The notes under the pieces: generated by a model
Told to the model about the DNA's origin: nothing
The model's database searches: none
What the model saw: the letters and a program-made list of their open reading frames with translations, nothing else
Position numbers and translations under genes: made by a program
NCBI GenBank assembly: GCA_965248735.1
Contig: OZ252146.1
Span: 2,276,154-2,340,153, forward strand
Length of the DNA stretch: 64,000 bases
Source of the DNA: Candidatus Aldehydirespirator sp.
Lineage (GTDB): Bacteria; Actinomycetota; Acidimicrobiia; Acidimicrobiales; Aldehydirespiratoraceae
Direction: 5' to 3'
Part shown: in pieces, positions 20,878 through 49,008 of the stretch
How the letters are laid out: every line of letters starts with the position of its first letter
Position numbering within the stretch: the stretch's first letter is position 1

Positions 20878-20884
20878 GCCGATC

Positions 20885-22383: not shown

Positions 22384-22393
22384 GCAACCACCA

Positions 22394-24618: not shown

Positions 24619-24650
24619 GACCCTTCACTCCACGTTTACGCGCAGGGCCG

Positions 24651-26602: not shown

Positions 26603-26618
26603 GATGCTCCTATGTTTG

Positions 26619-28569: not shown

Positions 28570-28656
28570 TGTAGTGATTCTGGGATCGTGTCCGGTTTTA
28601 GGTCGTTGATTACGGAGCATCGGGGTGGGAGCATGGCGCTGTGAAAGGAGCGTCAG

Positions 28657-31204: not shown

Positions 31205-31455
31205 GTGAGATGTCGGAGATGCAGGCCCGCAGGGTGCTCTCCCAAGCCGGCTCGCCCGCCGCAGACCCGGCGAGGTACCGCGCGCGCCGCATCAGCGGAG
31301 GCTGGTCGTTCGACTGGCGAGAAGATGCGGGACCGCCGCTGATCGGCACAATCGGGTGGGTGGTCGCCGACAACGGACGATGCCGGGGCCAACGGCTGGG
31401 GATGAGGGCGGACCAAGTCGTGCAGGCATTGATGGATACCGATTCGCCAGACTGA
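31198..31455 (+). CDS. Putative cognate immunity protein
   Basis: 85-aa ORF overlapping the toxin stop by 7 nt. 'RARRISGGWSFDWRED...IGWVVADNGRC' resembles small immunity proteins with a GW-F...vV..nG pattern. The call rests on position. Confidence 0.4.
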   Translation: MVGEMSEMQARRVLSQAGSPAADPARYRARRISGGWSFDWREDAGPPLIGTIGWVVADNGRCRGQRLGMRADQVVQALMDTDSPD

Positions 31456-31506
31456 CGACGGCGACAGATCCGCCAGCTGAACGACTGCCGACCAGAGCCT
31501 GTCTGT

Positions 31507-32121: not shown

Positions 32122-32125
32122 CCGG

Positions 32126-33715: not shown

Positions 33716-33741
33716 AGTTTTCTCCTACCTGTTTCTCCTAC

Positions 33742-36540
33742 CTACGGATGGGGGCTATTCGCGGTTGTCCCCGTGGCGGAGGCACGTGACAGAAGGTCTT
33801 CGAGAGCGTCGGATGGGAGACGTCCGGCTTGGGCCGCTTGAGCGAGTTGGCATCTCACCAGCCGGAAGGCCGGGTCCGCGCCCAGCAGCGGTTCGAGCCG
33901 CTCGACCTCTGACCGGGCCCAGCGACCGACGTCGCCGAAAGACTCCCGCCAACCGCGGCCCGCCAGAGCCGGCGGGCCGACGCGGGGCGCCGCCTCGTTC
34001 AGGAAACCGGCCGGCACCCGTACCCTGCACCCCCGCCCGCATGATCGGCACTTGGGGCTTGCGGTGAGACCGGCAACGTCGATGGTTCCTTGGCACGCCG
34101 GTTCTTTGTGCACCCACACCTCATAGGAGCGGTGCAACATCTGGTCGAATGCACGCCGGCTGGCGATGCTGCCCTCGGCGCGCTCTCGCACGAGCACGCG
34201 GCGCAAACCGACCCACGCCAGGCACTCCGGGGGGGTGCTCGTGTTCGGTCGGCTGGCCAGCAGTTGCATGTAGGTGTGGCGGCGCAGTGCGTCGCCGTCT
34301 CCGCTGCCTGCTCGAAGACCCACCAAGAACAGGGCCATGTGGGGCGCCGCGTCGGCCGCAGCGGCCCAGGCTCGGTAGTGGCCTTCGGCTTTGGCAACGG
34401 TGTCGGGCGAACAGCATGGCCACGAAGCCGCTTCCCCTGCGGGCGGGCGTGCCGAGTGGGACCCGTGTTCCTTGGCTGGCTCGACCTGGATGGTCTGTGG
34501 GTGTGGCTCATCCCTCGTCGACATGATTGCCTGTCCGCGCCGCAAGGTTCCGAGCAGGCTGGAACTGTCGTCGTCGAGGCCGATCGCCGCGGCAACTTCG
34601 GCCTGGTCGCCCGGGTGCACAACGCGATGAACCAGCTTGAGGTTCGTGTTGCGCAGGACGTCCGAGGAGACTTTGCCCGGGCTCTGGTCCACGACTATCA
34701 CCTGCTGGCCGAAGCTGCGAACCTCTGCCAGCATTGCCGAGAGCAGCTCTGTCGACACCCGTGACGCGCTGCCGTGCTCGTCGTCGGGAGACGACTCTGG
34801 AATGTGGGGGATGACCCTGTGTGCTTCCTCCAGCACGAGCAGATGGCCGACCGGCTGCGTGGTGGGCTGGCAGCGGGCGCGGTTCCAGGCTGCGAGGACA
34901 AGGACGAGGACAATGAAGGAGCGTTCCTCATCGTCTGGGATGTCGGCGAGGGTGACCATGGTGGGCGCGTGGAACAGCGACTGCACCATGGTTGAGTCGG
35001 TCCAAGTGAACCGGTGGGCGCGAACCGGCGAAAGCAGGACGTTCAGGCGCGTCATCAGGGCGGCGAGGATGTTGGTGCGGGCTTCCGCCGCGTAGCCGAG
35101 GGAATCGACGAGCGGCCCGAGCGCGTCGCGCAGGTCGTGCAGATCGCTGCCCGCGGGGCCCCCAGGCTGCACCGACAGGGAGTCGAACAAGTGGGTCACG
35201 ACGTACGGTGTGGGGCTGGGCATGGTGAACGCGCCCCGAAAGGCTTGCGCCACCCGAGCGACGTGGGCACGCGCGTCGGTGCCGGGCCAGGTCTCGAGCA
35301 AGTTCAATCGCAGCTCGCGGCCGCTCGCCACTGTGACGCCTCCCTCGAACAGCGCCGCGGCCTCGGAGTACTCGTCCTTGACCGGGTCGATCACGAGGAA
35401 GGGGATGCGATGCTTGTTCCACGCCTCCGACAGCACACGGTGCAGCGAGGTCGTCTTGCCGGAGCCGGTGGTCCCGGTGAAGAAGGCGTGCCCCTCCAGG
35501 TCGCCGACCCCGATTGAGGCCGAAGTGGGCTGACCCCAGTACCGGCCGAGAGTGATCGTGCGGCTGTCGGTGGATGGTCGGCGCCCTGACGGGGGCGGAA
35601 GTCGGACCCCGAGCCCAGGGATTCCAGCGCGCGGCGCCTCGAAGAGGGCGCCGACGTCGCGGCTGGTCAGCACCGATCGCGGAGGCGGTGCCCCTTGGCC
35701 GGTGCATTCCAGCGATGAGGTTGCGAACGTGCGTCCCGCGTCGGGCGGAATGGCGGAGCGCAGGGCACCGACGACGCTCCGAATCACGGCTGCATGGTTG
35801 CCCGCCACCCAGGTGTCGACGGTCCATAGGCCGTCGGCACGGCCTCGCACCGCGTGGGAGTGGAGTATCTCGATCCACGACTGCGCCCGACTCCACAACG
35901 GGGAGACCACAGTCGCTGTCTCGATGCCGGTGACGGCGCGGCTCACCGTGACTCTCGCGGCCGCGGCGTCGGCGAGTTTGAGCAGCGTCTCTGCGAACTC
36001 GTCGACCGCCTGGACGCTCACGCCGTCGAGTCGCCAGTGAACCAGCCAGTCCCCGTCGAGCCCTGCGAGCTGGTCGAGCGCGGTGGCAGGCCGAGCATCG
36101 GCAGGGCCGGAGTCTCGCAGCTCCCCCTGCAGCCGGTGGGTCAGGCCGAGCGCCTCCCAGTCGGCGCAAGGCGGCCTCTCCAGCGCGAGGTCACAGGAGG
36201 GAGCGAGCAGGGATCGTGCCCGGTGCCGCGACCGTTCGTCGTCGAAACCAAGAAAGAGCTGGCTACCGGTCGTGTCCGCATGGTGAAGTAGGACCTCGAC
36301 ACTGGTCCTCGCGCCCGTCTGGGGGATGAGCATCTGCTCTAGAGGAGACGGGACAAGGGGATCACGCACGGGAAGCGCCGCGATCCGGAGCCAATGTCTG
36401 GAGCGCATAGGCGGTCGAGGGCTGCATAGCCCACTCTTGAACTGGCCGTAGCTGAGGTCGAGGAGCAGTTGTTCCGGCGGTGAGTCTCCGACCCGCTCCG
36501 GAAGGCCATAGAGTTCGGCGACCGGTGCTTCCGCCATCAC
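33742..36540 (-). CDS. HerA/FtsK/VirB4-like P-loop ATPase (DUF87-type), 932 aa, with C-terminal Cys-cluster region
   Basis: Walker A 'FFTGTTGSGKTTSLH', Walker B 'HLLVLEEAHRVIP', 'VIVVDQSPGKV', 'LRRGQAIMST'. C-terminal 'SPKCRSCGRGCRVRVP'. Confidence 0.7.
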   Translation of the reverse strand: MMAEAPVAELYGLPERVGDSPPEQLLLDLSYGQFKSGLCSPRPPMRSRHWLRIAALPVRDPLVPSPLEQMLIPQTGARTSVEVLLHHADTTGSQLFLGFDDERSRHRARSLLAPSCDLALERPPCADWEALGLTHRLQGELRDSGPADARPATALDQLAGLDGDWLVHWRLDGVSVQAVDEFAETLLKLADAAAARVTVSRAVTGIETATVVSPLWSRAQSWIEILHSHAVRGRADGLWTVDTWVAGNHAAVIRSVVGALRSAIPPDAGRTFATSSLECTGQGAPPPRSVLTSRDVGALFEAPRAGIPGLGVRLPPPSGRRPSTDSRTITLGRYWGQPTSASIGVGDLEGHAFFTGTTGSGKTTSLHRVLSEAWNKHRIPFLVIDPVKDEYSEAAALFEGGVTVASGRELRLNLLETWPGTDARAHVARVAQAFRGAFTMPSPTPYVVTHLFDSLSVQPGGPAGSDLHDLRDALGPLVDSLGYAAEARTNILAALMTRLNVLLSPVRAHRFTWTDSTMVQSLFHAPTMVTLADIPDDEERSFIVLVLVLAAWNRARCQPTTQPVGHLLVLEEAHRVIPHIPESSPDDEHGSASRVSTELLSAMLAEVRSFGQQVIVVDQSPGKVSSDVLRNTNLKLVHRVVHPGDQAEVAAAIGLDDDSSSLLGTLRRGQAIMSTRDEPHPQTIQVEPAKEHGSHSARPPAGEAASWPCCSPDTVAKAEGHYRAWAAAADAAPHMALFLVGLRAGSGDGDALRRHTYMQLLASRPNTSTPPECLAWVGLRRVLVRERAEGSIASRRAFDQMLHRSYEVWVHKEPACQGTIDVAGLTASPKCRSCGRGCRVRVPAGFLNEAAPRVGPPALAGRGWRESFGDVGRWARSEVERLEPLLGADPAFRLVRCQLAQAAQAGRLPSDALEDLLSRASATGTTANSPHP

Positions 36541-36746
36541 GCTTGGAGCCGCGCTATCAGGGGCATTGTCCCATCAATCCCTGCACTACTTCCGCGGCTG
36601 GGATCTCCTACTGACTTGAATGTCTCGCAACCCCACGAGTCAATCCGACCGGAAGACTCACCCTTCAAGATGACGCGGTCTGCGGCATGAGTCGTCTCTG
36701 AGAGTTCAGCGCCAGCATGTTCCACAAGTACGGGCGTATCGCTCAT
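36537..36746 (-). CDS. Small hypothetical protein (69 aa), translationally coupled on both sides
   Basis: 4-nt overlaps with both the upstream and downstream genes. No recognisable domain. Confidence 0.4.
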   Translation of the reverse strand: MSDTPVLVEHAGAELSETTHAADRVILKGESSGRIDSWGCETFKSVGDPSRGSSAGIDGTMPLIARLQA

Positions 36747-37702
36747 AGGACTATCGATAGTAGAAGAAACACCATCAGGACCACAGCGATGACATACAGA
36801 AGCGTCACACCCTTGGATGTTCGGGCCGCGGCAGGGATATAGGGCCTTATGATTGTGCCGGAATCAACATGCGTGACCGTTGTTACGTTGAGCACGTTGG
36901 TGTGCCGCGAAAGGCGTCCATGGACCGTAACCCGGTCTCCGACACTGATAGATCCGCCTCGTAACTCGCCACGCAACGCGCAATGCCGGGTTGTGCCGTC
37001 GTCGACCTGGAGGCGAAACGGAGTGATGGGTATGTGCAAGGGGTCGAGACGTTGCCCGGAGCGCCGGCCGGAATGCAACGACATCATCGCCATCGGTCGG
37101 GAGAACAAGAACATGAGCAGGAAGCCGAGGGCGCGGATCGGTGCCAGCAGGCATCCTCTGGCAGCACCCCGCGCCAGGCTCTCCGCGCGGCGGTCGACGG
37201 TTTCGATCTGCTGCGGCAGGATCTCCGTGACGCGGCCGGAGACTGTAGTGCCCGGCATCAGGCCTGAACTGTCGGCAGTTGTGGAGGCCGAGTCGGCCGG
37301 GCTGCCCGACGTGGTGTGGGTGCCGTCGCCAGTGGCGCGCCGACGGGGCGGGTCACTCCCGCTCCCTGCCGTCGAGGCTGAAGTCGGGGAACGCGGAGCA
37401 TCGCTGGGGCTGGCAGGTGGCACGGAGCCAGGATCGGTGGATGCGGAATCGGTCATGTTCGCACGCCGATGGCCGCCGTCGCCTCGCGCCCGCCCGTCGG
37501 AATCAGCCTGCCCGGGCGAGCGCCAGTGGCACACTCCGCAGCGTTGAGGAACCCGCGAGTCCAGTGTGCGCCCACATCGAGGGCAAGTCTCAAAGATCAA
37601 GACCGTGCTCCTATGCGTCCCAGGGGAAGGGGACAGACCGTGCGATGGAGTTCTGCACGTCCAGGATGCGGCCCCACCAGTCATCCAAGAGGTCAGGACC
37701 AT
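36743..37702 (-). CDS. Zinc-ribbon / S-P-T-rich / two-TM protein with an OB-like beta domain (start uncertain)
   Basis: 'CPRCGRTLDSRVPQRCGVCHW' zinc ribbon, a low-complexity S/P/T/D linker, TM 'LLAPIRALGFLLMFLF', a beta-rich 'FRLQVDDGTTRHCALRGELRGGSISVGDRVTVHGRL', and C-terminal TM 'VTLLYVIAVVLMVFLLLSIVL'. A TTG at 37600 would avoid overlap with the 71-aa ORF. Confidence 0.55.
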   Translation of the reverse strand: MVLTSWMTGGAASWTCRTPSHGLSPSPGTHRSTVLIFETCPRCGRTLDSRVPQRCGVCHWRSPGQADSDGRARGDGGHRRANMTDSASTDPGSVPPASPSDAPRSPTSASTAGSGSDPPRRRATGDGTHTTSGSPADSASTTADSSGLMPGTTVSGRVTEILPQQIETVDRRAESLARGAARGCLLAPIRALGFLLMFLFSRPMAMMSLHSGRRSGQRLDPLHIPITPFRLQVDDGTTRHCALRGELRGGSISVGDRVTVHGRLSRHTNVLNVTTVTHVDSGTIIRPYIPAAARTSKGVTLLYVIAVVLMVFLLLSIVL

Positions 37703-37826
37703 TGCTGTCCGACGTCCACCACACGATGAGAGCGACCGTCAGCACAATGACGAACCCGACGTGTAGCGCGCTCCAACAACGACGGAGCACCTTGTAGAGG
37801 GGCGGAGGCGGAGGGTCCGGGTTCAT
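37611..37826 (-). CDS. Small single-TM protein (71 aa)
   Basis: 'MNPDPPPPP...' followed by TM 'ALHVGFVIVLTVALIVWW'. ATGA overlap with the stop of the upstream GTPase gene. Confidence 0.45.
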   Translation of the reverse strand: MNPDPPPPPLYKVLRRCWSALHVGFVIVLTVALIVWWTSDSNGPDLLDDWWGRILDVQNSIARSVPFPWDA

Positions 37827-39610
37827 GCTGGCTTCTCGGTCTCATCGGGCGGCGCATTCTCGTCTCGCCCAGGTCGATCTTGGGTTGGTGCCGCCTGGCG
37901 TGGCAGGTCTAGCCCCGCTGAGGTCTGAGTTCCATAGAGTGATGCGATGAACGACACCGGACGAAGCGGATGGACTGTGCTGTCTTCGGGCAACCTGGAC
38001 ATGGAATCGACCATGAAGTAGACGACACGCTCGAAGTCCAGTTCCATGCGCTTCACCAAACGATCCTCGCCAGATGCCATCAGCCATTCGCGAATCGACT
38101 CTGAACGAGTCGAGCCCATGAAGACGATGGAGACTTCGCGCAGGACATCGGCCTTCGTGAGCACTAATCCAAGGGCTCGTTTGTGAAGGGGGACGCTCTC
38201 GTTTCGCATCCGATCCACGGCTGATGAGTAGGCGTCAATTGCCTTGCCTGGCGCCACCTGCACCGGTAGCCGAGAATCCATTCGCTCGAGGCGGGCGCGA
38301 CAATGGTCGAGAGCGAGGGGATCTACCACGAAGAGGAGCGCCAACGCATTGTCCAGATACCTCAGACTCGATGTCGATTCCCAGCTACTGAAGTGTTGGC
38401 CAGCGGCGTCGATAAAGTGCATCTCGACCGACCGCCTTCTCGACCTTTTTGTCATGAAGTCATACACGAGGGGGCTATGTGCAACACTCGTATTGGGCAT
38501 TGAACTGCCTACGTCTAGGACACTTGTGAAGTTATTCAAGCCGTTACTGGCCAATCGAGAAAGTGGTACCAACTCTCCTCCATCGGCCGAGAGTCTTGTT
38601 GACAGATGAGCCATAGCCGAACCTAGCAGATGAGTCTTGCCTGCGTTCGATTCACCAATCACGGGAACAAGGAACGTTCGACGCGTTCCTGCACCTTCGG
38701 ATTGCGGCGTGTCACAAGTCGGACACCTTACGGTCATCCCTCGGCTAGCTCGGAGGACCGTTGTCGGTAGGTTGCTTCCGCACTCACACCGTCTAGAAAT
38801 TACACCCAATCGCGTAGCACGAATATCCCGATGCACTACTGGACAGTCGGCATCGGTGCATTCGTAGCTTGGAACTCGAGTCTCAGCGTAGCACTGCGTG
38901 CATACCATAGAGGCCCTTCGTCGGGTAAGGGCAAACCAGCCGATCGCTTGAAATGCCGATTGAAAAATACGTTGTCCTATAGTAATCGTCAGTCCGATGG
39001 CAATCATTACCACTGTCCAAATGAGTAGGGACATGGCTATACCCAAGAAAACAGCTAGGAAAGGGCCTATCATGATAGCAAATCGAATGAAGTCGACTAT
39101 TCCCTTGCTGTATTGCCTTGAGGTCTTCTTGGCAGCAGCGGTATGCGGTCCTGGTGTTGGTACATTCCCGCCAGAGAGATCGCCTACCATAGCGGGTCCC
39201 AACAGCAGCCTGCCTGTCTTCCTGAGCCAATGCAAGACTTCGAGACGCACGGCATTCACATCGCTTTTGGCTTGAAATGGAATGTACGTCGGCCAAGCCC
39301 TATCCCATCCATAGTGCTCTGCAGGTCCGCTCGGATTTGAACGGAATACATGGCCAGTGGCGACACGATCGGGCGTGAGCAGGACAGGTGACGATGCGCT
39401 CCGTCCAGTGAGAACCGCCAGCGGAATCCATGTGCCTAGTCCGCCGCCTACAACGACTGCCGTTGTCGCAACAACAAGATACGTTGTTACGACAATCGCA
39501 AGCAGTCGAACGAGTAGTGCTACCACTATCCAAACGGCAAATACGACAGCCGCCGCAACGATAGCTATGGCAACAATGGACCAAAAACATCCACTGAGAT
39601 CATCATCCAT
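37823..39610 (-). CDS. Membrane-anchored zinc-ribbon TRAFAC-type GTPase (candidate 'double-GTPase' partner 1)
   Basis: N-terminal TM segments. 'CTQCYAETRVPSYECTDADCPV...CECGSNL...RCPTCD' zinc ribbons. G1 'VIGESNAGKT', G3 'IDAAGQ', G4 'VLTKAD'. Confidence 0.65.
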   Translation of the reverse strand: MDDDLSGCFWSIVAIAIVAAAVVFAVWIVVALLVRLLAIVVTTYLVVATTAVVVGGGLGTWIPLAVLTGRSASSPVLLTPDRVATGHVFRSNPSGPAEHYGWDRAWPTYIPFQAKSDVNAVRLEVLHWLRKTGRLLLGPAMVGDLSGGNVPTPGPHTAAAKKTSRQYSKGIVDFIRFAIMIGPFLAVFLGIAMSLLIWTVVMIAIGLTITIGQRIFQSAFQAIGWFALTRRRASMVCTQCYAETRVPSYECTDADCPVVHRDIRATRLGVISRRCECGSNLPTTVLRASRGMTVRCPTCDTPQSEGAGTRRTFLVPVIGESNAGKTHLLGSAMAHLSTRLSADGGELVPLSRLASNGLNNFTSVLDVGSSMPNTSVAHSPLVYDFMTKRSRRRSVEMHFIDAAGQHFSSWESTSSLRYLDNALALLFVVDPLALDHCRARLERMDSRLPVQVAPGKAIDAYSSAVDRMRNESVPLHKRALGLVLTKADVLREVSIVFMGSTRSESIREWLMASGEDRLVKRMELDFERVVYFMVDSMSRLPEDSTVHPLRPVSFIASLYGTQTSAGLDLPRQAAPTQDRPGRDENAPPDETEKPA

Positions 39611-42032
39611 TGCTGCGGTCCTTGGGAGCGGCGCGAGAAGTGGCTTTTCTCCATTCTCTACGTTGAAATCGTTCGCGCAAGGGCGTCACTGTCTTGAGCA
39701 TGCTTCCAAATTTCGCAGCAAATGAATCATCGAGGGATTCTCCAACGAGCATCACCGTAGCCCGGTTGCGTGGGTCGTACCACCAGTCCTTCAATGCAAG
39801 TGCGATTGCCTCACGAAGATCTGCTGGGCAGCCAGGGTGCAACCACATAAGTGTGGAAACATACACTGCATCGATCGGATCAATCGTGAGTCTGTCGGAT
39901 AGAGATTCCAAAATGGGATGACGCCAGTCAATTTGGTGTAGGTTCAAAATGGCTGCCGACGTCTCGACGTCATGGCATTCCATAGCGAGCTTCGCGATGG
40001 TCCGATGTCTCAAGATGATCGCTCGGCGACAATGAGACGCGATTCTCTGAAGAAATGCATTTGGGTGCAGAAGTCTATGATCGACACTGGCTGCTTGGAT
40101 GCTCCACCGCACAATGTCTTCGCTTTCGCTCATCAATTTTCTAGTGGATTCGGTGAGGCCATCCGGTTGGAGTTGAATCAGAAGGTCCACGAGCACAACG
40201 ATGCACGAAGCGTCTCCAGAACTTGTGAGGCGCTGGGTGACGATCCCTTCAATGACAGCGGCTAGGCTTGGCTCAATTGTGTCGTGAACCCGAAGCCATA
40301 GGTCGAGAAGCGGGATGTCGAGCAGATTGCTAAACCCAAAAAATGCGTCCCATGAAGTGGGCGCACAGTGTGAAACGTACCGTTCGAATTCCTGCCGTCG
40401 AGCGGGGGTATCGAGTTTGGCGAGCTTACCGGCGAGAAGCCACGGAAACAGTGGATTGTCAGGAGTGAAGACTTCGGGAACGTTCGCTGCCCAGTCCCAT
40501 ACTCCCGCCCGCAGTTGTGCGACCACCTCTGAACGCTGAGTGCCGTAGAGTCGGGAAGACAGCGTGTCGCATACGGCCATTCGGACGCATTCGGTGTGCA
40601 GCCACGAGGTGTGTTGGCGTTCGAGCTTTGGATTGGATACCCAGAGTTGGCCGAGTCGTTCGATAGATGAATGCACCAGTTCGTGAGAGAGTTCGGTATT
40701 TAGCCATCGTGCGAGCGAAAACATATCGGACAGCACGTCATCAGGCGAATCGTCGACGATTGTGGCCAACAACCTCGCGGCGTGGCTACGCGCATCTTGA
40801 TCGGGCCAGTCGATGGTCGGTGGCACGCCTTCGACCGCGAACGTCCGGGCCCATACAGAGGACGCCACCGTAGATAATGCCGAGACTTCAAGCGCAGCCA
40901 ATGTGCACCCAGTCATCAATTCATTTTGGTCGCATTCGTGTAGTGCGACGATCGCGCGGAGGAGTAGCTCAATAGTCGCGTCATCACTCGCATCAAATTC
41001 GTGCACAGCATCGACCAAAGAGGGTCCAAAAGTGGAAAGATCGGCGCTCTGTTGATGCCTTGCAAGTGCCTCCAATACAGCAGCAGCTGCAGGAGCAGGA
41101 CTGCGAACGTGTCGACTGTTCAGAACGACTCTCTCGGCGGCGATGACAGCGACGTCTGGGGACAACAGGTTCTGCCAGCGCCGGCTGACCTGAACCGCTC
41201 TCAGTGCCTGCAACGGATCGGCCTGAAGGAACCAACGCGCATAGACGTGAGCCGTCTCATCCGTTTCAACTGCGGTACCTTGAAAGGAGCGGAGATCAAA
41301 CCAGTTGGCCTCGGAGGGGATGGGTTGTTCCAACAGATCAGGGTCGGTTCCAACAATATCGAACCGCGCATCAGCTACTGGCCTATTGCTGAAGGCATAG
41401 AAGCTAGTCGACAACGCTGTGTCGCGATCCAAGAAAAGTGTTCCAACCGTTATCCACTGCGCGATAACTTGGAGATCGGTGTGAAGAAGAACGAGGCGCG
41501 TTCTCGGCTTGTGAGATGCTTGCTCGACCATTGTCAGGAAACTGGGAAGAGCATCAACAGCCGCCGTTGATGCTGCAACTAGGTACTGCAAGGCGGAGAG
41601 TCCGAAAGAGTCGCTGACCGACAGCGGAGCCGTGAGCGATGGCAAGGTCGTGGTCGGTGACTTCTGTAGCGTCCAGACTGATGCGCCAAAGAGCTGCGCT
41701 GGAAGATGACTGACAAAGTCGTTGGCGTCATGGGTAACAATACAATGTGTGACTTGATTACCCGACCGTCCATCAGCCATGCGGCCCAGGTACCTTCCCC
41801 GGGCTACGATGAATCTGTCCTCTACCGCCAGGTATGCGAACGATTGAGGAAACTCCTCGTTCTCGAGTCTACGCTGAACGAGTGAGTGTGGCACGACATA
41901 CAGGACATTACGAGCGAGTGCCTCATCTTCTTGATCGGTATCATCACTGACTGCATAAAACTGAAACCCTGTACGAAAGTGAATCGATTCTTCGCGAGAT
42001 GCATCCGTATAGATAAGGCTGGCGAAACTCAC
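39603..42032 (-). CDS. Large cytoplasmic alpha-helical protein, candidate GTPase-associated protein (GAP1-like N-terminus)
   Basis: 809 aa. The N-terminus 'SLIYTDASREESIHFRTGFQFYAVSDD...GRSGNQVTHCIV' resembles the 'QLhYTS...GFQ..A.S' pattern I recall for GAP1 N-terminal domains. Sits between the two GTPase genes. Confidence 0.45.
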   Translation of the reverse strand: MSFASLIYTDASREESIHFRTGFQFYAVSDDTDQEDEALARNVLYVVPHSLVQRRLENEEFPQSFAYLAVEDRFIVARGRYLGRMADGRSGNQVTHCIVTHDANDFVSHLPAQLFGASVWTLQKSPTTTLPSLTAPLSVSDSFGLSALQYLVAASTAAVDALPSFLTMVEQASHKPRTRLVLLHTDLQVIAQWITVGTLFLDRDTALSTSFYAFSNRPVADARFDIVGTDPDLLEQPIPSEANWFDLRSFQGTAVETDETAHVYARWFLQADPLQALRAVQVSRRWQNLLSPDVAVIAAERVVLNSRHVRSPAPAAAAVLEALARHQQSADLSTFGPSLVDAVHEFDASDDATIELLLRAIVALHECDQNELMTGCTLAALEVSALSTVASSVWARTFAVEGVPPTIDWPDQDARSHAARLLATIVDDSPDDVLSDMFSLARWLNTELSHELVHSSIERLGQLWVSNPKLERQHTSWLHTECVRMAVCDTLSSRLYGTQRSEVVAQLRAGVWDWAANVPEVFTPDNPLFPWLLAGKLAKLDTPARRQEFERYVSHCAPTSWDAFFGFSNLLDIPLLDLWLRVHDTIEPSLAAVIEGIVTQRLTSSGDASCIVVLVDLLIQLQPDGLTESTRKLMSESEDIVRWSIQAASVDHRLLHPNAFLQRIASHCRRAIILRHRTIAKLAMECHDVETSAAILNLHQIDWRHPILESLSDRLTIDPIDAVYVSTLMWLHPGCPADLREAIALALKDWWYDPRNRATVMLVGESLDDSFAAKFGSMLKTVTPLRERFQRREWRKATSRAAPKDRSNG

Positions 42033-42050
42033 AATCGGCCCTCAGACTGT

Positions 42051-43223
42051 TTACCTTGAAACTAGACTATCTCGTCTTCGAGCCTTGGAAATCACGCCAT
42101 GCTTGAACATGAGCCACAGCAAGGGTTCTGCCACCCGACGCGAATTGATTTGTGATCCTCGTACGGTGCTACTGCCATAGTCAGGTTCCGCACCCAAGGC
42201 TGAGACTGCAAAGAATCGAAATGTCTTGAAATTCTGATCCAAAGCGGTAAGAACAGGACCGCCACCCCAGTCATCGACTAAGCCCTGCAGATGATGGTGA
42301 AGTTCGGTAGCGTCGTGGTCGTCAAATCCTGGGGAATCAGGTTCGGTACGACGGAGTAGTCCAGTTGAGTCAGTGTCGTTCCAGAAGGAGTCGAGTTTCG
42401 TCAACACGACAGCTAGAGGGCGACGCAGATGCTTCTTGGCAGAAAGCTGCTCTTCTTGGCGGAGGATGACAATGAGTGGTGCGAGCACATCCATCGGACG
42501 GGTAGGTTCGGTAGCTAGTTTGGATAGGCCAGGAAAGTTCGGAAATCCAAAAGGATCCAACAGCAAGATGAGACCGTCCGTCGTACCTATGTACCTCCGT
42601 TCGCGCATACTCGCTTGGGATAGTAGTTCCTCGCCTGATGCGTCATTGAAGGACAAGAAGCCTACTGAAGCACCAGGGTTCTTACGCCATGCGAGAATCG
42701 CAGGCGTATCATTGCCGCGGATGATCGGATTGGTTGCGGGTGGCAAGGAACCGTTGGTCCGGTTCATTCCATCATAATAGCTCCTCAACAGGTTGAAGGT
42801 CTCGTCTTTCTCTCGCTCGATCACGGTATGAACGGTTGCACCGAACCGCTTGTCAGCTATAATGTCAAGTTCGCCGCAGAGGACGGAGAGCAAGACCGTC
42901 TTTCCAGAGCCTCGGACGCCTACGATTCCAAAGAGTGGTGACGGAACCTCGCCAAAGTGAGGCGGTAGAGCAGAATGGCATGTTTGGCAGGCAAGGATTA
43001 GAGCCTTGCCTCCGCAATGTGGACAGGTTCCGTCAGAATTCTTTGGAAAGGTGGGCATAGCCCTTTCCTCGGCAAGCAACCCCAATGCGTCCTGGCGTTG
43101 ACGATCGGGCCGTTTAGTACACTGCGTCTTACCGGGGGCGGGGTGGCTGCCGTTACATTGGCGATGTATGGCCCGAGGATCTATGCGATCATAGCAGAAG
43201 GGGCAGGCAACGGTACGTGGCAT
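42051..43223 (-). CDS. Zinc-ribbon TRAFAC-type GTPase (candidate 'double-GTPase' partner 2)
   Basis: 'CPFCYDRI...CPHCGGKALILACQTCH' zinc ribbons. G1 'GVRGSGKT', G3 'FNDASGE', G4 'VLTKLD', G5-like 'VSALG'. Confidence 0.65.
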   Translation of the reverse strand: MPRTVACPFCYDRIDPRAIHRQCNGSHPAPGKTQCTKRPDRQRQDALGLLAEERAMPTFPKNSDGTCPHCGGKALILACQTCHSALPPHFGEVPSPLFGIVGVRGSGKTVLLSVLCGELDIIADKRFGATVHTVIEREKDETFNLLRSYYDGMNRTNGSLPPATNPIIRGNDTPAILAWRKNPGASVGFLSFNDASGEELLSQASMRERRYIGTTDGLILLLDPFGFPNFPGLSKLATEPTRPMDVLAPLIVILRQEEQLSAKKHLRRPLAVVLTKLDSFWNDTDSTGLLRRTEPDSPGFDDHDATELHHHLQGLVDDWGGGPVLTALDQNFKTFRFFAVSALGAEPDYGSSTVRGSQINSRRVAEPLLWLMFKHGVISKARRRDSLVSR

Positions 43224-43232
43224 GACAGGAAA

Positions 43233-46145
43233 TCAGGTCGGTGGGCGTCGAAGGAGAGTGGAGACTCGACACCGTTGAGTCCGGCTCTTGGGTTTCAAGC
43301 GAACCGATGCGTTGTCGACAGGAAAGGCGCGAATCCATTTGACGTTCAATCGACGAGGAATTGATATTTTCACACGAACGCGATCGCCGCGTGCGGACAA
43401 GACTAGGCGATGGCGTGACAGTTCTTGGTGTCCTTCAGCGATCGTAGGTTCGTAGCGGGCGGAAGCAACAATAATCACCTCTGTATCGATGACCCGTTCC
43501 GATTCTGAGTAGTAGGTCAAGGTACATTGGCGGGATCTACGAGACCGGATGGGATACCAACCGAGGCAATACGAAGCGACGCTGACGCGCGATTCCCAAA
43601 TCGCATCAAACCACTCAGAATCATGGTGAGAGCGAACCAACGACGGAGAGGTTGTCGAACACTGCTCAGGAAGGCTGTATACGCCACGCAGTCGCAGTTT
43701 CAGTGATCCGGTTTCCATGGGTACCTGTAAGAGGTTGTCGGCGATGCTCCGGTGACTAGCCACTATAGTATTCTCATGGAGCTGTCCGCCGGACCACTGC
43801 CATTCAACTTGAACCCGATCGATCGACGCAGGCCAAGGCCAAGAGATCTTCAAGACATCACCGAGCTGCTCAAATGACACACTGTCTATACGCTCAGATA
43901 CGGCGAGAATCTTAACACAACCGCCGAGTGCGAACCTTTCTCGGAGTGTGAATGCTTGCAGGTATGAGACGCCGAATCCGATCGTGGTATCCATTACGCT
44001 AACATCTCCATCAGGTTGAATTGATCCTCGCAGTTGGTAACCCGTCGATGCGGACAAATCTTCCAACTCTTCAATTGAGACTTGTTGTCCGATGCGGTAA
44101 GGGGAAGGTTGTTGGAATGACCAAAGCCCTATTGAGTAGTGATTTTGGCTGGGCAACCTGGCGATGAGATGAGGTAGCTGATCGCGGTTTCGACGGATGT
44201 CTATATCGAAGTCTGTGATCGGCAGCATGGGCGGTCGAACGAGAACATCAAGTGCGACCGGTTCTGATTCATATATCCTGCCATCATTGGTGCGGAAGAG
44301 CGCTGTCGCGTCAAAACTATATTCGGTGAGCAATTCCAAATCAGTGAACGTATGAGAGTCCTTCGCGAATTCATGGAAGACAGTCTTATCTCCCGGTGTA
44401 GATACGGCGATGCGCACAGCCGTGCATCTGCGAGGAGCAGTCCACGTCAATCTAATACTAGATTCGTCTGTCGTGGCCGACAAGCCTGTGACAGGAGGAC
44501 AAAAGAAGATCGGTCCATGAATCGCCGCGGAAGAAAAGAGGGTTTGAGAATCGACCCCAGGCCCGGATACCTCTTGATAAGTTGATATACCATACCAGAA
44601 GTGCCGTGCGATTGGTGGCGTGTCATCGACAAAATCGCTTCGATTGAGTTGCTCCGCGATGACCTGGCCGTCGTTGGCACCAAGCGGTTGGGCGTCCTGT
44701 TTGCATATCAACCGATAGCGAGAATCTAGAGAAGCCTCCGTACCCGATTCCCACACAATCCTGAGTGCTTGACCCAGCTCTCCCTGAGCGTTTTCGCAAG
44801 CTATCACACCCCGAATGTTAGGTGGACTGGGCGGCAGTGCACGGAAGACATTTCGAAGTTCCTCGTCTTCGTTGATTGCCAACGCGGCGCGAATGTCTAC
44901 CCTAGCAGAAATAAAATCACGAACTTCTACAGCCTTGAGTCCGGCTTCTCGTTGTCTAGCATAGCGTTGACTAAGACCGGCCAATTGGTCTCCCAGGTCT
45001 TTGAGTTGGCGCTGTGACGTGTCGCTCGAACCCTTCTTTGCCGTAGTGCTCATCGCGTGCTGGTGGAGGTGGTTGGCTTGGTCAAGATCCTTATCGAGTA
45101 TGGATTGGCGGATCTGTTGTACGAAGCCCTCGATCGAGTCGGTGTGCGATCGACGCGAGAGGTTCCGATGCATGTGAACGTGCACCGCGATGCGTTGTGC
45201 ATCATCATGCGCTAGTCCGAGGCTCTCTAGATAGCCCATGATCCGAGAGGGCACGCGTGGTGCCTGCCTGATCACATGGTCAAGTAGATGCTTGAGGACG
45301 ATGGCGTGCAACTCGTGATCATTGGTGGCTCTGAGTGCGCTCAAGACTGCCTCTCGGTGCTCACCTGTGTCTTGTCGCTCCTGCCTGGCAGAGTCACGCG
45401 CTCGCGCTACGGCCGCCAGCGTTAGCTGGGTTTTGCTGTCTTCACCGTTAGCGTTCAGAATCTGGAATCGATCGACAATCTTGAAGCGACTTTGGGATTG
45501 ACCATTACCGACAATATCATCGAAGATCGCATGCGGAAGCGTTCGACGGTGTGCCTTCTCGAGGCAAACTGTCATAGTGTTCACATCCAACTCGATGTCA
45601 GGGACTGTGATGGCTTCAGCAATTGTAAGGTTAGCATCGGCGGCGCATTGGTGAATATCGTCATCACTGAAGTCATCTTCAGACAACCCTAGCAAGGTGA
45701 TCGTGGCGCGAACAGCGTCCTCCGTCACTACTCCGTAAGCACCAAACTGGCGTTCTAACTCTCCCGAGTCCCGCATCGTGGATGTCGCTCGATTCTGCCG
45801 TTCTCGACGAAGTTCGTTCCAAAACGCGATCGAAGAAACCTGGCGCTGTGCCTTTAGCCATTTCTCAAGACGTTGCAATGGACCCACATACTGAGATAGT
45901 TCCAGCTTCAAATTCGACCAGATATGGTGAATCACGGAGACGCGCTTCTCTATTTCTACCCGGTTCATAGAAGCGCCGATGTCATAGAGTGTGATCAGGT
46001 CCAGATCGTGCAGGCGCGATGAATCGCTCTGCTCCAAGCATTGACAGACGTCTACAAAGTCAGATAGGTGTATCTGGCGAAAGTATGGCCTCAAAACTCT
46101 CGACTTGTAATCCCTAGCGTACGCTTTATCACTAGACTTAGCCAT
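43233..46145 (-). CDS. Large hypothetical protein (970 aa): helical N-terminal half, FN3-like domain and beta-rich C-terminal half
   Basis: 'PVTGLSATTDESSIRLTWTAPRRCTAVRIAVSTPGDKTVFHEF...TFTDLELLTEYSFDATALF' looks like a fibronectin type III module. The rest is unassigned. Confidence 0.5.
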   Translation of the reverse strand: MAKSSDKAYARDYKSRVLRPYFRQIHLSDFVDVCQCLEQSDSSRLHDLDLITLYDIGASMNRVEIEKRVSVIHHIWSNLKLELSQYVGPLQRLEKWLKAQRQVSSIAFWNELRRERQNRATSTMRDSGELERQFGAYGVVTEDAVRATITLLGLSEDDFSDDDIHQCAADANLTIAEAITVPDIELDVNTMTVCLEKAHRRTLPHAIFDDIVGNGQSQSRFKIVDRFQILNANGEDSKTQLTLAAVARARDSARQERQDTGEHREAVLSALRATNDHELHAIVLKHLLDHVIRQAPRVPSRIMGYLESLGLAHDDAQRIAVHVHMHRNLSRRSHTDSIEGFVQQIRQSILDKDLDQANHLHQHAMSTTAKKGSSDTSQRQLKDLGDQLAGLSQRYARQREAGLKAVEVRDFISARVDIRAALAINEDEELRNVFRALPPSPPNIRGVIACENAQGELGQALRIVWESGTEASLDSRYRLICKQDAQPLGANDGQVIAEQLNRSDFVDDTPPIARHFWYGISTYQEVSGPGVDSQTLFSSAAIHGPIFFCPPVTGLSATTDESSIRLTWTAPRRCTAVRIAVSTPGDKTVFHEFAKDSHTFTDLELLTEYSFDATALFRTNDGRIYESEPVALDVLVRPPMLPITDFDIDIRRNRDQLPHLIARLPSQNHYSIGLWSFQQPSPYRIGQQVSIEELEDLSASTGYQLRGSIQPDGDVSVMDTTIGFGVSYLQAFTLRERFALGGCVKILAVSERIDSVSFEQLGDVLKISWPWPASIDRVQVEWQWSGGQLHENTIVASHRSIADNLLQVPMETGSLKLRLRGVYSLPEQCSTTSPSLVRSHHDSEWFDAIWESRVSVASYCLGWYPIRSRRSRQCTLTYYSESERVIDTEVIIVASARYEPTIAEGHQELSRHRLVLSARGDRVRVKISIPRRLNVKWIRAFPVDNASVRLKPKSRTQRCRVSTLLRRPPT

Positions 46146-46191
46146 CTTGGTCGGTCTCTTCCAATCACCACGCTAGAGCCGTTCTGAACCC

Positions 46192-47808
46192 TTAGCCTCG
46201 TACGTTGACCCCGGACATTACTTCGGTAGCGGCTACGACTTCATCGGGTTGTAGAACTGAGATTGTTACCTCGAGCTTGAGTTGCTGCTGCGACTTCGGC
46301 TCTATCGCGTTGAGTGTCGCTCTCAATTCGTTATCAATCGTTAGAAAGAAGTCGATAGCTGATCCCTTCGGTAGTGACGGCAGATTTGTGAAAAGCGCTC
46401 CTTCGGCTGGAGTGATTTCTCTATTGTTGGCCACCTCTTCTGACTCATGTGCGCCTGCCTGCTCGAATATCTCAATATTGATGGTCGTCGCATTGTCATC
46501 CATCGTTTGACCTTGTACGTGCCGATTCTTGATGGGAAGAGTCTCATTCTGGTGTGCAATGAAGCCGACATAATATTCACGAACACCATCGGTCCGGGTC
46601 TCCCGTACAAATCCCACTCCAAGGCCCCGTGAAAGGACATTGTTTACGACTGTTGTTGACGCCAAGTACCGTGTTCGGGCAGTTGACGAGCCGCCGGATT
46701 CAGGGCCCGAGCCCCCGGCCTGATCCTCGGCTGCCTGTTGGTTTAGGGCGGCACCGTATAGCGCTGCGCCCTTGGCTACGGCGAGATCGGGGTCTGCTAG
46801 CCTGAAGGCCCATTGTGGATAGCGCGATTCTAGAGATGCCTTGACTGCTGGCATCCGTGTGGAGCCGCCGACCAGAAGGACTTCGTCAATCTTCAGAGAG
46901 CTATCCTTTTGCATGGCCTTTGCGAGGGTGCGATCGACGGTCTCGAGAGTCGTGTTGAGGAGGTGGGCCGTGACGTCCTCGAACTCCTGACGGCTTACAG
47001 TGACCCGTTCTCGTATCGCTCCGTAACCCAAGATCACAGGGCATTCGATCCGATTGGACAGCTTCTTCTTGGCCCTTTCGGTTTCCTCGGCGAGGCGTTG
47101 CAAAAAGTCGTCGTCGTCACGGGGGTCCTCCTCAAGTGAGACCGCCTGGACGAACTTGTCAGCAAGAATGTTGGACAACTCGCGATCCCAGTCCGCACCG
47201 CCCAACTCGCGGTTGCCGTCAATCACCATGACATCTATCGGTCTGGCGTCTTCATAGGTCCGCATGATAGTAGTGTCAAAGGTGCCGCCGCCCAAGTCAT
47301 AGACCAACAGGGTCTTTGCCTGTTGGGACGAGAAGGAATAGGACATAGCAGCTGCGACAGGCTCTGTCACAATGCTGACAACCTCTAGCCCGGCGATCTC
47401 TCCAGCCTGTTGGGTAGCAGTCCTCTCAAGCAGCCCAAAGTATGCAGGGACAGTAATGACAACCTTGTTTGTGTCGATGCCAGTCTGTTCCTTGGCGAAC
47501 TGTGCGAGGTGCTTCAGTATCAGTGAGGATAGCGTTTCTGGCGTGTGGTCCACACCGTGATACGTGACGCTGTAGTCAGTACCCATCCTGCGCTTAATGA
47601 GTTGTACGACGTTATCAGCGTCGAGGACAGCAGAATTCTTGGCCGTTTCACCGACAATGGTGTTGTGTGACTCTTCAAAATGAACGGCGGACGGTGTCGT
47701 CTCATTGTCGTTGTCAGGATTTCTTATGACCTCCGGCTGGTCTGTCTCATTGATGTACGCGATCGCAGAGTAAGTAGTACCTAGATCAATACCGAATATG
47801 TCAGTCAT
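46192..47808 (-). CDS. Hsp70-family ATPase (copy 2), lid-less
   Basis: 'IFGIDLGTTYSAIAY', 'VITVPAYFG', 'VYDLGGGTFDTTIM', 'VLLVGGSTRMPAVK'. 538 aa. Confidence 0.85.
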   Translation of the reverse strand: MTDIFGIDLGTTYSAIAYINETDQPEVIRNPDNDNETTPSAVHFEESHNTIVGETAKNSAVLDADNVVQLIKRRMGTDYSVTYHGVDHTPETLSSLILKHLAQFAKEQTGIDTNKVVITVPAYFGLLERTATQQAGEIAGLEVVSIVTEPVAAAMSYSFSSQQAKTLLVYDLGGGTFDTTIMRTYEDARPIDVMVIDGNRELGGADWDRELSNILADKFVQAVSLEEDPRDDDDFLQRLAEETERAKKKLSNRIECPVILGYGAIRERVTVSRQEFEDVTAHLLNTTLETVDRTLAKAMQKDSSLKIDEVLLVGGSTRMPAVKASLESRYPQWAFRLADPDLAVAKGAALYGAALNQQAAEDQAGGSGPESGGSSTARTRYLASTTVVNNVLSRGLGVGFVRETRTDGVREYYVGFIAHQNETLPIKNRHVQGQTMDDNATTINIEIFEQAGAHESEEVANNREITPAEGALFTNLPSLPKGSAIDFFLTIDNELRATLNAIEPKSQQQLKLEVTISVLQPDEVVAATEVMSGVNVRG

Positions 47809-48734
47809 GTAAGTTCCTCCGTTGTTGGACGTATCGGGTCATCCAGTAGTGTTATGTTGTCAGGTTTTGTAGCGATGATCTCAGGGTGAGGATCGTCAGA
47901 CTCGTTAGAGAGTTGTGCTTCGTATCGGTAGACATCGACTCTCGCATACAGGATTGGCTTTGTATCCTCAGGTGCAGCGAATCCTTGTCTTCGTACCTTG
48001 GCGATGCATCGGTCGAATGCGGGATCGTGGGTAAGTCGCGTCCGCTCTGCAGTGTGGAGTACGGCATCAAACCTTTCACCGGCGGCGACGTTGAGGGAAT
48101 CGAATCCAAGATGTTCGATGGCTTCCTCGATTCTGTGCGCAAAGAGTCCGATTTCTTTGTGTATTCGCTCACGATCCAGAGAATCCAATGAATGCAACTG
48201 GATGGCATGAGCGTGTAGTTCTGCGAGGGAAACTATGACGGGCTTCAAGAGGCTGCGTATCTGATCGGCGCGCAGGTCTTCGATCTGTGTTTGCATACGA
48301 CGGATGATGTTCTCATGAAACTCAGATCTACCGTGGAAGTCAGTGATTTTACTCCCAATTTGGAGGGTCAATTCGAGAAGCTGAGAGAGTGTTTCGGATT
48401 GTGCAGTCATGGGAGTCTCAAGTGGGTCTGCAACATCATTGCCGAAGGACTGATCGGCGCTCTCGCTGTCTTGTATGTCTTGAGCCTCGATCGGTGATGC
48501 TTGCCGCTCAGCCTCCCATCCGCCGATGACTCCTTGTGTGTCGAGGTCATCGAAATCGGCGGTACTGGAATCGCTATCCCCGGATGGTGGCGCGGGTTCC
48601 GGTTCGGAGGGCACGGATTCCCGGTTGAGGTCTGAGCTGGCTGCGGTCTGCGGGCCGGTGCTGGGCGGCGCCGAATCGCCCGATGCTTCAGGCTGCGTCG
48701 TCGAACCCTGCGAGTCGCTTTCGGGCCGGGTCAT
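47805..48734 (-). CDS. GrpE-like nucleotide-exchange-factor candidate with acidic S/P-rich N-terminus
   Basis: Coiled-coil 'SEFHENIIRRMQTQIEDLRADQIRSLLKPVIVSLAELH' parallels GrpE 'xEFxNYRKR...DLLPVLDNLE'. C-terminal 'AAGERFDAVLHTAE...VRRQGFAA...ILYARVDVYRYE' parallels the GrpE beta domain 'GExFDPxxHEA...VxxxGYxx...xLRPAxVxV'. ATGA overlap with Hsp70 copy 2. Confidence 0.5.
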   Translation of the reverse strand: MTRPESDSQGSTTQPEASGDSAPPSTGPQTAASSDLNRESVPSEPEPAPPSGDSDSSTADFDDLDTQGVIGGWEAERQASPIEAQDIQDSESADQSFGNDVADPLETPMTAQSETLSQLLELTLQIGSKITDFHGRSEFHENIIRRMQTQIEDLRADQIRSLLKPVIVSLAELHAHAIQLHSLDSLDRERIHKEIGLFAHRIEEAIEHLGFDSLNVAAGERFDAVLHTAERTRLTHDPAFDRCIAKVRRQGFAAPEDTKPILYARVDVYRYEAQLSNESDDPHPEIIATKPDNITLLDDPIRPTTEELT

Positions 48735-49008
48735 GGGTTAGACTTGTTGCGAGGGGAGGGTGTCAGACAGGGAGGGCGCCAGTCGCTTGGGGAGGTGGTG
48801 CAAGCGGACTGAGCGCTTCGGGCCGCGACATTCCTGCGACTTGCGATGGAGCTATGGGAAACACGCGTTCCTCCAGGGGCTGGTTCGGCGGTCGCGAGAT
48901 GATAGTGCCCATGACAACAGGGATGCAAGTGCGCCCAAGGCAAGTGGCGCGACTCTAGAAGCCGCCGATGTGACCTAGCTGAGGCAATTTCAATCGTGGA
49001 GCGGGGAC

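Follow-up and report, generated by a model that had tools for sequence, protein, structure and literature searches.

GTPase-centred conflict systems in which DO-GTPases accompany a GAP1 protein were defined computationally by Kaur et al. (eLife 2020; PMC7159879). According to the main text of that study, DO-GTPases belong to the TRAFAC clade, have a conserved Walker B glutamate (DxxGE) and flank GAP1, often as two paralogues; in the GAP1-N2-type systems the GTPases carry two zinc ribbons, and one of the two has four N-terminal transmembrane (TM) helices and one C-terminal TM helix. A 'second theme' described there, which accounts for ~14% of neighbourhoods, mainly in actinobacteria and firmicutes, adds an HSP70, a GrpE and sometimes a second Hsp70, and the FNIII-repeat protein encoded in the operon is, in this HSP70/GrpE theme, fused to DnaJ or TPR. 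The GAP1 domains are given no fold in the main text, where vWA proteins appear under the other two themes only and where the HSP70/GrpE theme is described with no vWA protein, HerA-type ATPase, zinc-ribbon/TM protein or deamidase/immunity pair. Here we analyse a locus in a 64,000-nucleotide (nt) stretch of DNA (the window, to which all coordinates refer unless a relative is named) from Candidatus Aldehydirespirator sp. (contig OZ252146.1, positions 2,276,154 to 2,340,153). Our analysis shows that this locus is a GAP1-N2-type DO-GTPase conflict system of the HSP70/GrpE theme, and that its functional unit is a 12-gene operon (48734->31507) together with a convergent gene pair encoding a deamidase and a protein of 85 amino acids (aa; 30461-31455), carried on a 37-kb island rich in insertion sequences (IS). 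For the favoured explanation as a whole, which comprises the class identity, the extent of the unit and the mechanism proposed below, we estimate a probability of roughly 0.55.

The core of the locus consists of six genes on the minus strand (37823-48734) encoding a GrpE-like factor, Hsp70A, an FN3 protein, GTPase-A, GAP1 and GTPase-B. These are the genes that a preliminary description of this DNA had singled out, and most of what it said of them holds up: the six open reading frames (ORFs; 309, 538, 970, 390, 809 and 595 aa, respectively) lie where it placed them, the G+C content of the core is low (0.53-0.55 compared to 0.65-0.70 in the flanks; 0.53-0.60 compared to 0.81-0.95 in flanking genes at third codon positions), and the Pfam search that it proposed matched GAP1-N2, GAP1-M, DO-GTPase2, HSP70, GrpE and fn3. 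The pairing of two zinc-ribbon GTPases with GAP1, an Hsp70 and a GrpE, which it had associated with the systems of Kaur et al., is complete here, and the likeness that it drew to those systems extends to the HSP70/GrpE theme of the GAP1-N2 type. Its statement that the class is experimentally uncharacterised agrees with our literature search, in which no experimental follow-up was found under these names. The boundaries that it gave did not stand: half of the operon was missed, and the low-G+C segment is only part of the functional unit.

The locus shares with the HSP70/GrpE theme the N2 and M domains of GAP1, the paired zinc-ribbon TRAFAC GTPases (one with about four TM helices), the FNIII protein, Hsp70 and GrpE, the second Hsp70, an actinobacterial host and a purely computational status. 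It departs from the theme in several respects: the FN3 protein has no DnaJ fusion and only a weak TPR-like signal; both Hsp70s have the beta subdomain of the substrate-binding domain (SBD-beta), whereas the second Hsp70 of the theme, in the main-text account, lacks it; a separate 71-aa TM protein stands in for the C-terminal TM helix of the membrane GTPase; and the Walker B glutamate is a glutamine in GTPase-B. The locus is a further member of a known, computationally defined class, and what is added here is the true extent of the unit, the boundaries of the island and a relative with an empty site, a structural hypothesis for GAP1, the covariation of an insert in the FN3 protein with Hsp70/GrpE and a recombination mosaic.

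The recurrence of the gene order in other genomes, one of the points on which the preliminary description had staked its proposal, was examined in 44 actinobacterial loci obtained through an alignment of GAP1; of these, 39 are independent and span 20 kb or more, and their core genes were counted with profile hidden Markov models. Each of the 39 has GTPase-A, GAP1, GTPase-B and an FN3-family gene in invariant order, an arrangement far beyond chance. An upstream Hsp70 gene is found in 30 of the 39, and GrpE in 28, each time directly upstream of Hsp70A. Downstream, GTPase-B is succeeded in fixed order and orientation by the genes for tm71 (12 loci), a second Hsp70 (13 of the 39) and a vWA protein (12 loci), in Mycobacterium, Rhodococcus, Antrihabitans, Frankia, Pseudarthrobacter, Dermacoccus, Modestobacter and Actinoplanes relatives.

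It is this downstream extension (31507-37826, minus strand) that completes the operon in the window. The 12 co-directional genes from 48734 to 31507 are separated by gaps of -8 to +46 nt (-4 to +26 nt within the extension) with no terminator-like site between them, which suggests a single transcription unit; a scan for sigma-70 promoters was uninformative (6 sites compared to 5.5 expected). The first gene of the extension, tm71 (37611..37826, minus strand), encodes a 71-aa protein with a single TM segment, and its start overlaps the GTPase-B stop codon by 4 nt. It was detected directly after GTPase-B in the 12 loci by tblastn (E = 1e-40 to 3e-5) and is annotated as a gene in L001, L003 and L052. 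It is followed by orf319 (36743..37702, minus strand), whose product has an S/T/P-rich linker, two hydrophobic segments (predicted TM segments at residues 181-209 and 294-319) and a CxxC...CxxC zinc ribbon; its start is probably nearer 37600, giving 285 aa as annotated in L001. Neither Pfam nor PADLOC gave a match to orf319, and homologues were found in L001 and L005-L007 only. The next gene, orf69 (69 aa; 36537..36746, minus strand), shares 4-nt overlaps with orf319 and the HerA-type gene and is 99% identical in L001; its status as a gene is less certain because it was not detected in more distant loci. The HerA/FtsK-type P-loop ATPase (932 aa; 33742..36540, minus strand) matches Pfam DUF87 (24.2 bits, cut-off 23.2, E = 4e-5) and the HerA models of PADLOC (down to E = 4e-14), and its Walker A motif GTTGSGKT is kept in L001 and L005-L007. 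The operon ends with Hsp70B (529 aa; 32126..33715, minus strand) and, 4 nt further on, the vWA protein (204 aa; 31507..32121, minus strand; VWA_2, E = 7e-12), which follows Hsp70B in the 12 loci and whose intact MIDAS motif (DxSxS) reads DVSGS in the aligned orthologues.

Convergent with the operon, on the plus strand, lies the gene for a 247-aa protein with a papain-fold glutamine deamidase toxin domain (30461..31204; PF15644, 65.8 bits, cut-off 24.1, E = 1e-17), in which the catalytic-type Cys (NC[SA]DC) and His (HAYN) are conserved. Its stop codon is overlapped by imm85 (31198..31455, plus strand), encoding an 85-aa protein that has no Pfam match and a dN/dS of 0.09 relative to L001. The two genes travel with the system in six loci: imm85 follows the deamidase in L001 and L005-L007 (tblastn), and an 85-aa gene is annotated at the same place in L052. 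In L001 and L052 the pair lies beside the system, on the opposite strand as in the window, and in L005-L007 (Modestobacter and a metagenome-assembled genome) the operon itself contains the pair, with orf319 on one side and the HerA-type gene on the other. Together these observations make the deamidase a candidate effector and the 85-aa protein its putative inhibitor. Both resemble the deamidases of polymorphic toxins (PF15644) and their immunity genes in the papain-fold domain with Cys and His and in the small, overlapping, co-conserved ORF; they differ in that there is no N-terminal trafficking domain here and that the pair is tied to a GTPase/Hsp70 operon rather than to a secretion locus.

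In GAP1 (809 aa; 39603..42032, minus strand), N2 and M domains precede a helical HEAT-like solenoid. GAP1-N2 (PF20013) matches residues 3-136 (78.6 bits, cut-off 24, E = 6e-22) and GAP1-M (PF20014) residues 160-237 (29 bits, cut-off 24, E = 1e-6), in line with the GAP1 pattern noted earlier for the N-terminus. GAP1-C (PF20052) gave no match in the window protein even at E <= 10; it is carried by the distant full-length homologues P0014-P0017, which align over 34-69% of the window protein. An exhaustive profile search among 1.84 billion proteins returned a family of 1124 representative clusters at E <= 1e-3, mostly of ~800 aa. In the AlphaFold model of the full-length protein (pLDDT 88.6), the helical character noted beforehand resides in a confidently predicted solenoid that follows alpha/beta N2 and alpha/beta M domains.

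Residues 1-400 modelled alone (pLDDT 91.5, pTM 0.89) were compared with the PDB using Foldseek. The best matches were to DENND10 (E = 2.1e-4, probability 1.00), folliculin (FLCN; E = 2.1e-4, probability 0.99, and 5.4e-3), TagF (E = 4.3e-4, probability 1.00) and FNIP2 (E = 1.4e-2), the PDB chains being 8p0v_M, 6nzd_H, 8dhb_J and 6ulg_N, and the five best are all longin-DENN proteins or their relatives, which we take, as established knowledge, to be regulators of small GTPases. The N-domain alone also matches 9v0j_A and 7t3b_B, chains of GATOR1 complex structures that are presumably the Nprl longin domains. The fold predicted for the N2 and M domains is thus like that of eukaryotic longin-DENN GTPase regulators, a well-supported lead rather than proven homology, because the TM-scores are modest (0.24-0.46 overall, 0.34-0.46 to the DENN proteins) and the likeness is at the level of the fold only. 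Three invariant residues, R89, N92 and Q93, fall within a beta-hairpin loop of the N2 domain (GRxGNQxTH), and R89 is a candidate arginine finger; in FLCN and Nprl2 the arginine finger belongs to the same (longin) domain. In addition to the predicted fold, GAP1 would share with folliculin-FNIP2 (a GTPase-activating protein for RagC), the DENND guanine-nucleotide exchange factors of Rabs and Nprl2/3 of GATOR1 an arginine in the longin-domain loop, invariant here, and its gene sits between two genes for small GTPases. It differs in that the presumed partners are zinc-ribbon DO-GTPases rather than Rag or Rab proteins and that a HEAT-like solenoid follows the module. The longin-DENN-like fold gives rise to a concrete hypothesis, in which GAP1 acts as regulator of the GTPase pair and R89 is the candidate finger; if true, this would connect a bacterial conflict system with the proteins that control Rag and Rab GTPases in eukaryotes. 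A bolder version, in which GAP1 is a prokaryotic longin-DENN regulator, DO-GTPase/GAP1 is the counterpart of folliculin-Rag and DENND-Rab, and the whole forms a 14-gene J-independent immune device where GAP1 gates release of the deamidase driven by Hsp70, vWA and HerA, is tentative and, as a package, we lean against it.

The two GTPases that GAP1 would regulate are related to each other. GTPase-B (595 aa; 37823..39610, minus strand) matches DO-GTPase2 (PF19993; 56.2 bits, cut-off 27, E = 5e-15), and BLASTP aligns GTPase-A (390 aa; 42051..43223, minus strand) to it from the second zinc ribbon to G4 (E = 3e-5), by which we recognise GTPase-A as its soluble paralogue at the sequence level. The motifs described beforehand can be read in both translations: GVRGSGKT, DASGE and TKLD in GTPase-A, GESNAGKT, DAAGQ and TKAD in GTPase-B, and CxxC pairs in each, forming two N-terminal ribbons in GTPase-A and two in GTPase-B, every one with four Cys (or Cys/His) ligands. 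They are also conserved among homologues, the cysteines largely so, in 46 GTPase-A and, apart from G3, 36 GTPase-B sequences. In the 46 GTPase-A orthologues G1, G3 (DxxGE), G4 and G5 are conserved and the eight ribbon cysteines are largely kept, one being lost in L017, L024, L036 and L037. The multi-TM character attributed to GTPase-B finds its counterpart in hydrophobic blocks at residues 4-64 and 170-215, with room for about four TM helices in its N-terminal part; the polypeptide has no C-terminal TM helix. At residue 404 of GTPase-B, the G3/Walker B motif is DAAGQ in the window and L001 and DxxGE in 31/36 sequences; in L033, L034 and L042 this residue is P or R. Conversion of the GTPase-B glutamine to glutamate by the deamidase was considered and ruled out, since L005-L007 have the deamidase and already encode E.

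The chaperone genes of the core begin with the GrpE-like nucleotide-exchange factor (309 aa; 47805..48734, minus strand). Pfam GrpE matches it above threshold (28.8 bits, cut-off 25.8), and a profile of 14 orthologues aligns over its whole length to Geobacillus kaustophilus GrpE in the DnaK-GrpE structure (4ani_A, E = 2.4e-5), so that its earlier designation as GrpE-like is upheld. The acidic tail ascribed to it was half right: the C-terminal tail is acidic, but the acidic low-complexity sequence is mainly N-terminal, residues 1-120 being acidic and disordered with 25 D/E compared to 3 R/K. Hsp70A (538 aa; 46192..47808, minus strand), whose gene overlaps that of GrpE by 4 nt, matches Pfam HSP70 (E = 7e-86) over the nucleotide-binding domain (NBD) only, aligned with DnaK residues 1-356. 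Hsp70B (HSP70, E = 1e-79) is 39% identical to it over 511 aa (BLASTP E = 7e-89), and a C-terminal profile of both paralogues matches the SBD-beta of Hsp70 (E = 3.5e-15), which is present in Hsp70B as well. Both proteins are lid-less, as had been claimed for Hsp70A, because this profile stops at about DnaK residue 514, where the helical lid would begin. The canonical DnaK/Hsp70 architecture is therefore incomplete: NBD and SBD-beta are present and the phosphate-binding motifs intact, and there is no lid and no J-domain encoded in the locus. The locus resembles the DnaK-DnaJ-GrpE triad in having an Hsp70 NBD with these motifs, an SBD-beta and a GrpE-fold factor encoded just upstream; it differs from it in the absence of lid and J-protein, in the 120-aa acidic disordered N-terminus of its GrpE and in that the genes are embedded in a GTPase operon on a mobile island. 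The roles of bacterial Hsp70 derivatives with short or absent lids are a stated open question in a 2026 review (PMC13580251). In the Antrihabitans locus L008, the FN3 gene is preceded by a tandem pair of Hsp70A-like genes (2455-6074), and Hsp70B is present downstream as well.

The FN3 protein (970 aa; 43233..46145, minus strand) is laid out as an N-terminal ~110-aa module, a helical/TPR-like region, two FN3 domains and a C-terminal beta-rich module of ~310 aa. The FN3-like module proposed for it is supported both by Pfam, where fn3 matches residues 551-630 (25.3 bits, cut-off 25) and is found in 14/21 orthologues, and by the orthologue profile, which matches FN3 structures of fibronectin (E = 4e-12) and has a weak match to the TPR part of DNAJC3 (E = 1e-4); Pfam TPR, likewise a weak signal, is matched in 4/21 orthologues. 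The family occurs in two forms. In the long form, an extra ~515 aa in the centre of the protein (window residues ~120-635) comprises the helical/TPR-like region and the two FN3 domains; this insert is present in all 28 loci with GrpE and Hsp70A and in none of the 11 without GrpE (L020, L024, L028, L029, L032, L033, L036, L037, L040, L042 and L047, at ~7000-8800), where a short form of ~450-590 aa keeps the N-terminal ~110 and C-terminal ~310 aa. Of the evidence available, this covariation points best to the central insert as the part that couples to Hsp70, and would be compatible with use of the host DnaJ too. The HPD tripeptide that the preliminary description had failed to see was not found in any of the 12 locus products scanned. 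The possibility that the helical N-terminus of the FN3 protein hides a J-domain was ruled out: no DnaJ domain was matched in 21 orthologues, and hhalign to the E. coli J-domain gave a probability of 0.1%. That the locus encodes no J-domain need not mean that its Hsp70s are J-independent, because the host DnaJ could serve.

The whole system is carried by the IS-rich island (12001..49004), and the evidence for its insertion comes from a close relative with an identical PhoU protein and flanks of 98% nucleotide identity. The contig of this relative (L051) matches the window from 56054 to 49005 at 98% identity and then, after ~57 bp, from 12000 to 10433 at 89%, so that it runs from a histidine-kinase gene straight into an alpha/beta-hydrolase gene (~11.2-12.0 kb in the window). 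This direct junction defines window positions ~12001-49004 as a 37-kb insertion between two convergent genes, and the island is an insertion relative to contig L050 as well. It starts with IS110- and IS30-family transposase genes and contains three more, the transposase genes lying at 12067-13427, 23557-24555, 26949-27917 and 28776-30053; no tRNA gene was found, and no flanking repeat at the junctions. The host, a high-G+C actinobacterium, probably belongs to the class Acidimicrobiia, to judge from the names of proteins that share a 90%-identity cluster with a flanking acyl-CoA dehydrogenase. In L001 and L052 the same block from GrpE to VTT occurs in other contexts, also bracketed by IS elements.

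The core also bears traces of allele exchange. Between the window and L001 (10001-12427), dS of GAP1 is 0.10-0.11 over residues 1-255 and 0.65-1.17 over residues 256-809, a ~6- to 10-fold jump at residue ~255 that marks a breakpoint of recombination where the M domain meets the solenoid, and the solenoid behaves as an exchangeable module. Positive selection as the cause of the low GAP1 identity to L001 was ruled out, since omega stays at 0.18-0.35 along the whole protein and the jump is in dS. Hsp70A has a dS of 0.50 in the same comparison, compared to 0.13-0.26 in its neighbours.

The mechanism that we propose draws on domain content and linkage (Kaur et al. being the closest precedent), and we infer it in the following form. 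The membrane-anchored GTPase-B and the soluble GTPase-A would constitute a paired nucleotide switch at the membrane, on which the N2 and M domains of GAP1 would dock to set the GTP/GDP state, with R89 as the candidate arginine finger, while the exchangeable HEAT-like solenoid might offer a partner-binding or specificity surface. The FN3 protein would act as sensor or adaptor, its central insert engaging Hsp70A, which would be recycled by its own GrpE. Past a threshold, the HerA-type ATPase, Hsp70B and vWA protein would assemble and the deamidase would be freed or activated from its 85-aa inhibitor; it could then modify an essential protein and halt the growth of the invaded cell. The anti-invader role is suggested, indirectly, by the mobile island with its empty site, the linked toxin domain and the allele exchange.

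Two further predicted systems share parts of this scheme. Type III-A CoCoNuT (eLife 2024; PMC11090510), derived from McrBC, is likewise a predicted, experimentally uncharacterised defence theme. Its parts are similar: a lid-less NBD/SBD unit resembling Hsp70 and HEAT-like helical repeats accompany a GTPase, along with vWA (MIDAS) proteins and insertions of FtsK/EssC- or HerA-type ATPases. The theme differs in that its GTPase is a McrB-type AAA+ protein, that it has no GAP1, FN3 protein or GrpE, and that it combines degenerate Hsp70 ATPase motifs with predicted RNA targeting by HEPN nucleases, whereas the Hsp70 phosphate-binding motifs are intact here and the deamidase is the sole enzyme-like effector. 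The MoxR-vWA ternary systems, as presented in the main text of PMC7159879, also place an ATP-driven chaperone and a MIDAS vWA 'co-chaperone' beside variable effectors; there the chaperone is a MoxR AAA+ protein instead of an Hsp70, and VMAP and iSTAND have no equivalent here.

Several observations weigh against the favoured explanation, in addition to the modest TM-scores of GAP1. GTPase-A reaches 19.8 bits on Pfam DO-GTPase2, below the cut-off of 27, and GTPase-B has Q in place of the family Walker B glutamate, so that only one of the two GTPases, GTPase-A (DASGE), has it. PADLOC matched none of the six core proteins, apart from a weak Hsp70 match, and no literature on experimental function was found for any member of the class. 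The sample of loci is biased because all of them were drawn through one GAP1-N2 peptide pattern. The HerA-type ATPase is found in 5 loci only, and 26/39 loci end at GTPase-B with no recognisable effector, which rules out the deamidase as the output of the class in general. Finally, the G+C content steps from 0.547 to 0.625 exactly at the 4-nt overlap of GTPase-B and tm71, which shows that in this lineage alone the two halves have different histories. The step is common to the window and L001 only, core and extension being equal in all other genera examined, and this restriction to one lineage indicates that a low-G+C core joined, or replaced part of, a higher-G+C system here.

The sharp G+C step is among the observations that could instead be read as the juxtaposition, in a defence island, of two or three independent modules, namely the core, the HerA-Hsp70B-vWA group and a deamidase toxin-immunity pair. 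The 26 loci that consist of the core alone would fit such a history, as would the absence of the HerA-type gene from the close relative L052, where it is evidently dispensable, the orientation of the deamidase pair, opposite to that of the operon in the window, L001 and L052, and the fact that HerA-type ATPases serve unrelated defence systems, as the PADLOC matches show. We nevertheless think this unlikely to be the full account, since tm71, Hsp70B and vWA follow GTPase-B in fixed order and orientation across the eight genera and relatives named above, a 4-nt overlap ties tm71 to GTPase-B, the deamidase pair lies within the operon in L005-L007, and the main text of Kaur et al. already counts the second Hsp70 as part of the theme (PMC7159879). 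The G+C content is also uniform over both halves in every other genus, which suggests that core and extension are a single co-resident unit.

Even as a single unit, the genes might serve something other than immunity: a membrane machine that deploys the deamidase against competitors, or an envelope or developmental process, with the HerA/FtsK-type protein as motor and the GTPases and chaperones as assembly factors. A toxin followed by an immunity gene is the layout typical of interbacterial polymorphic toxins, FtsK/HerA ATPases drive type IV and type VII secretion, and GTPase-B, tm71 and orf319 are membrane proteins; GAP1 is, in addition, structurally like TagF, an accessory protein of the type VI secretion system. 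The main text of PMC7159879 also draws a link with a multicellular habit and 'complexes akin to cytoskeletal structures'. The deamidase, however, has no recognisable secretion or trafficking domain, TM segment or signal-like segment, the toxin pair and the HerA-type gene are missing from most loci, no channel or secretin-like component was found, and the IS elements that flank the unit, its accessory status and its allele exchange are features typical of defence genes, so that we regard delivery to competitors or an envelope function as distinctly improbable. A more mundane origin of the chaperone genes, as ordinary duplicated stress genes (DnaK/GrpE paralogues) beside unrelated GTPases, would agree with the strong HSP70 and GrpE matches and with the several DnaK derivatives carried by many bacteria (PMC13580251). 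It is hardly credible here: both Hsp70s are lid-less and score far below the NCBIfam DnaK equivalog cut-off (285 bits, cut-off 648), they stand in strict order with GAP1, the GTPases and the FN3 protein across genera, and the genes are absent from a near-identical relative and anomalous in composition.

A GAP1-N2-type system with its own chaperones and a linked deamidase is the explanation that we retain, and the locus is a compact, complete and naturally delimited example in which to test questions about DO-GTPases, GAP1 and lid-less Hsp70s. Its boundaries are defined to within a few bases by a near-identical relative that has no island, its catalytic motifs are intact, it has a dedicated GrpE and no J-protein, and the deamidase with its putative inhibitor provides a plausible enzymatic output.

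Some features of the island and its insertion site lie outside the system itself. The site by the histidine-kinase gene appears to be a hot spot for insertions, and in L050 (10839-13280) the PAS-histidine kinase gene beside it is split by a DDE transposase into parts of 198 and 237 aa. The left edge of the island has an IS110-family C-terminal fragment (12067-12468), and 15 kb away (26949-27917) lies an IS110-family gene with a truncated C-terminal domain; these split pieces may be the trace of a rearrangement. Further inside, positions 14188-18397 encode a threonyl-tRNA-synthetase-like protein (615 aa) and a 485-aa protein with a class-II aminoacyl-tRNA synthetase anticodon-binding domain, extra copies that could be resistance or decoy genes. 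The island also has two genes for VTT/DedA-like membrane proteins (21954-22412 and 24662-25363), and a VTT gene may travel with the system because in L001 and L052 one is located immediately past the deamidase pair.

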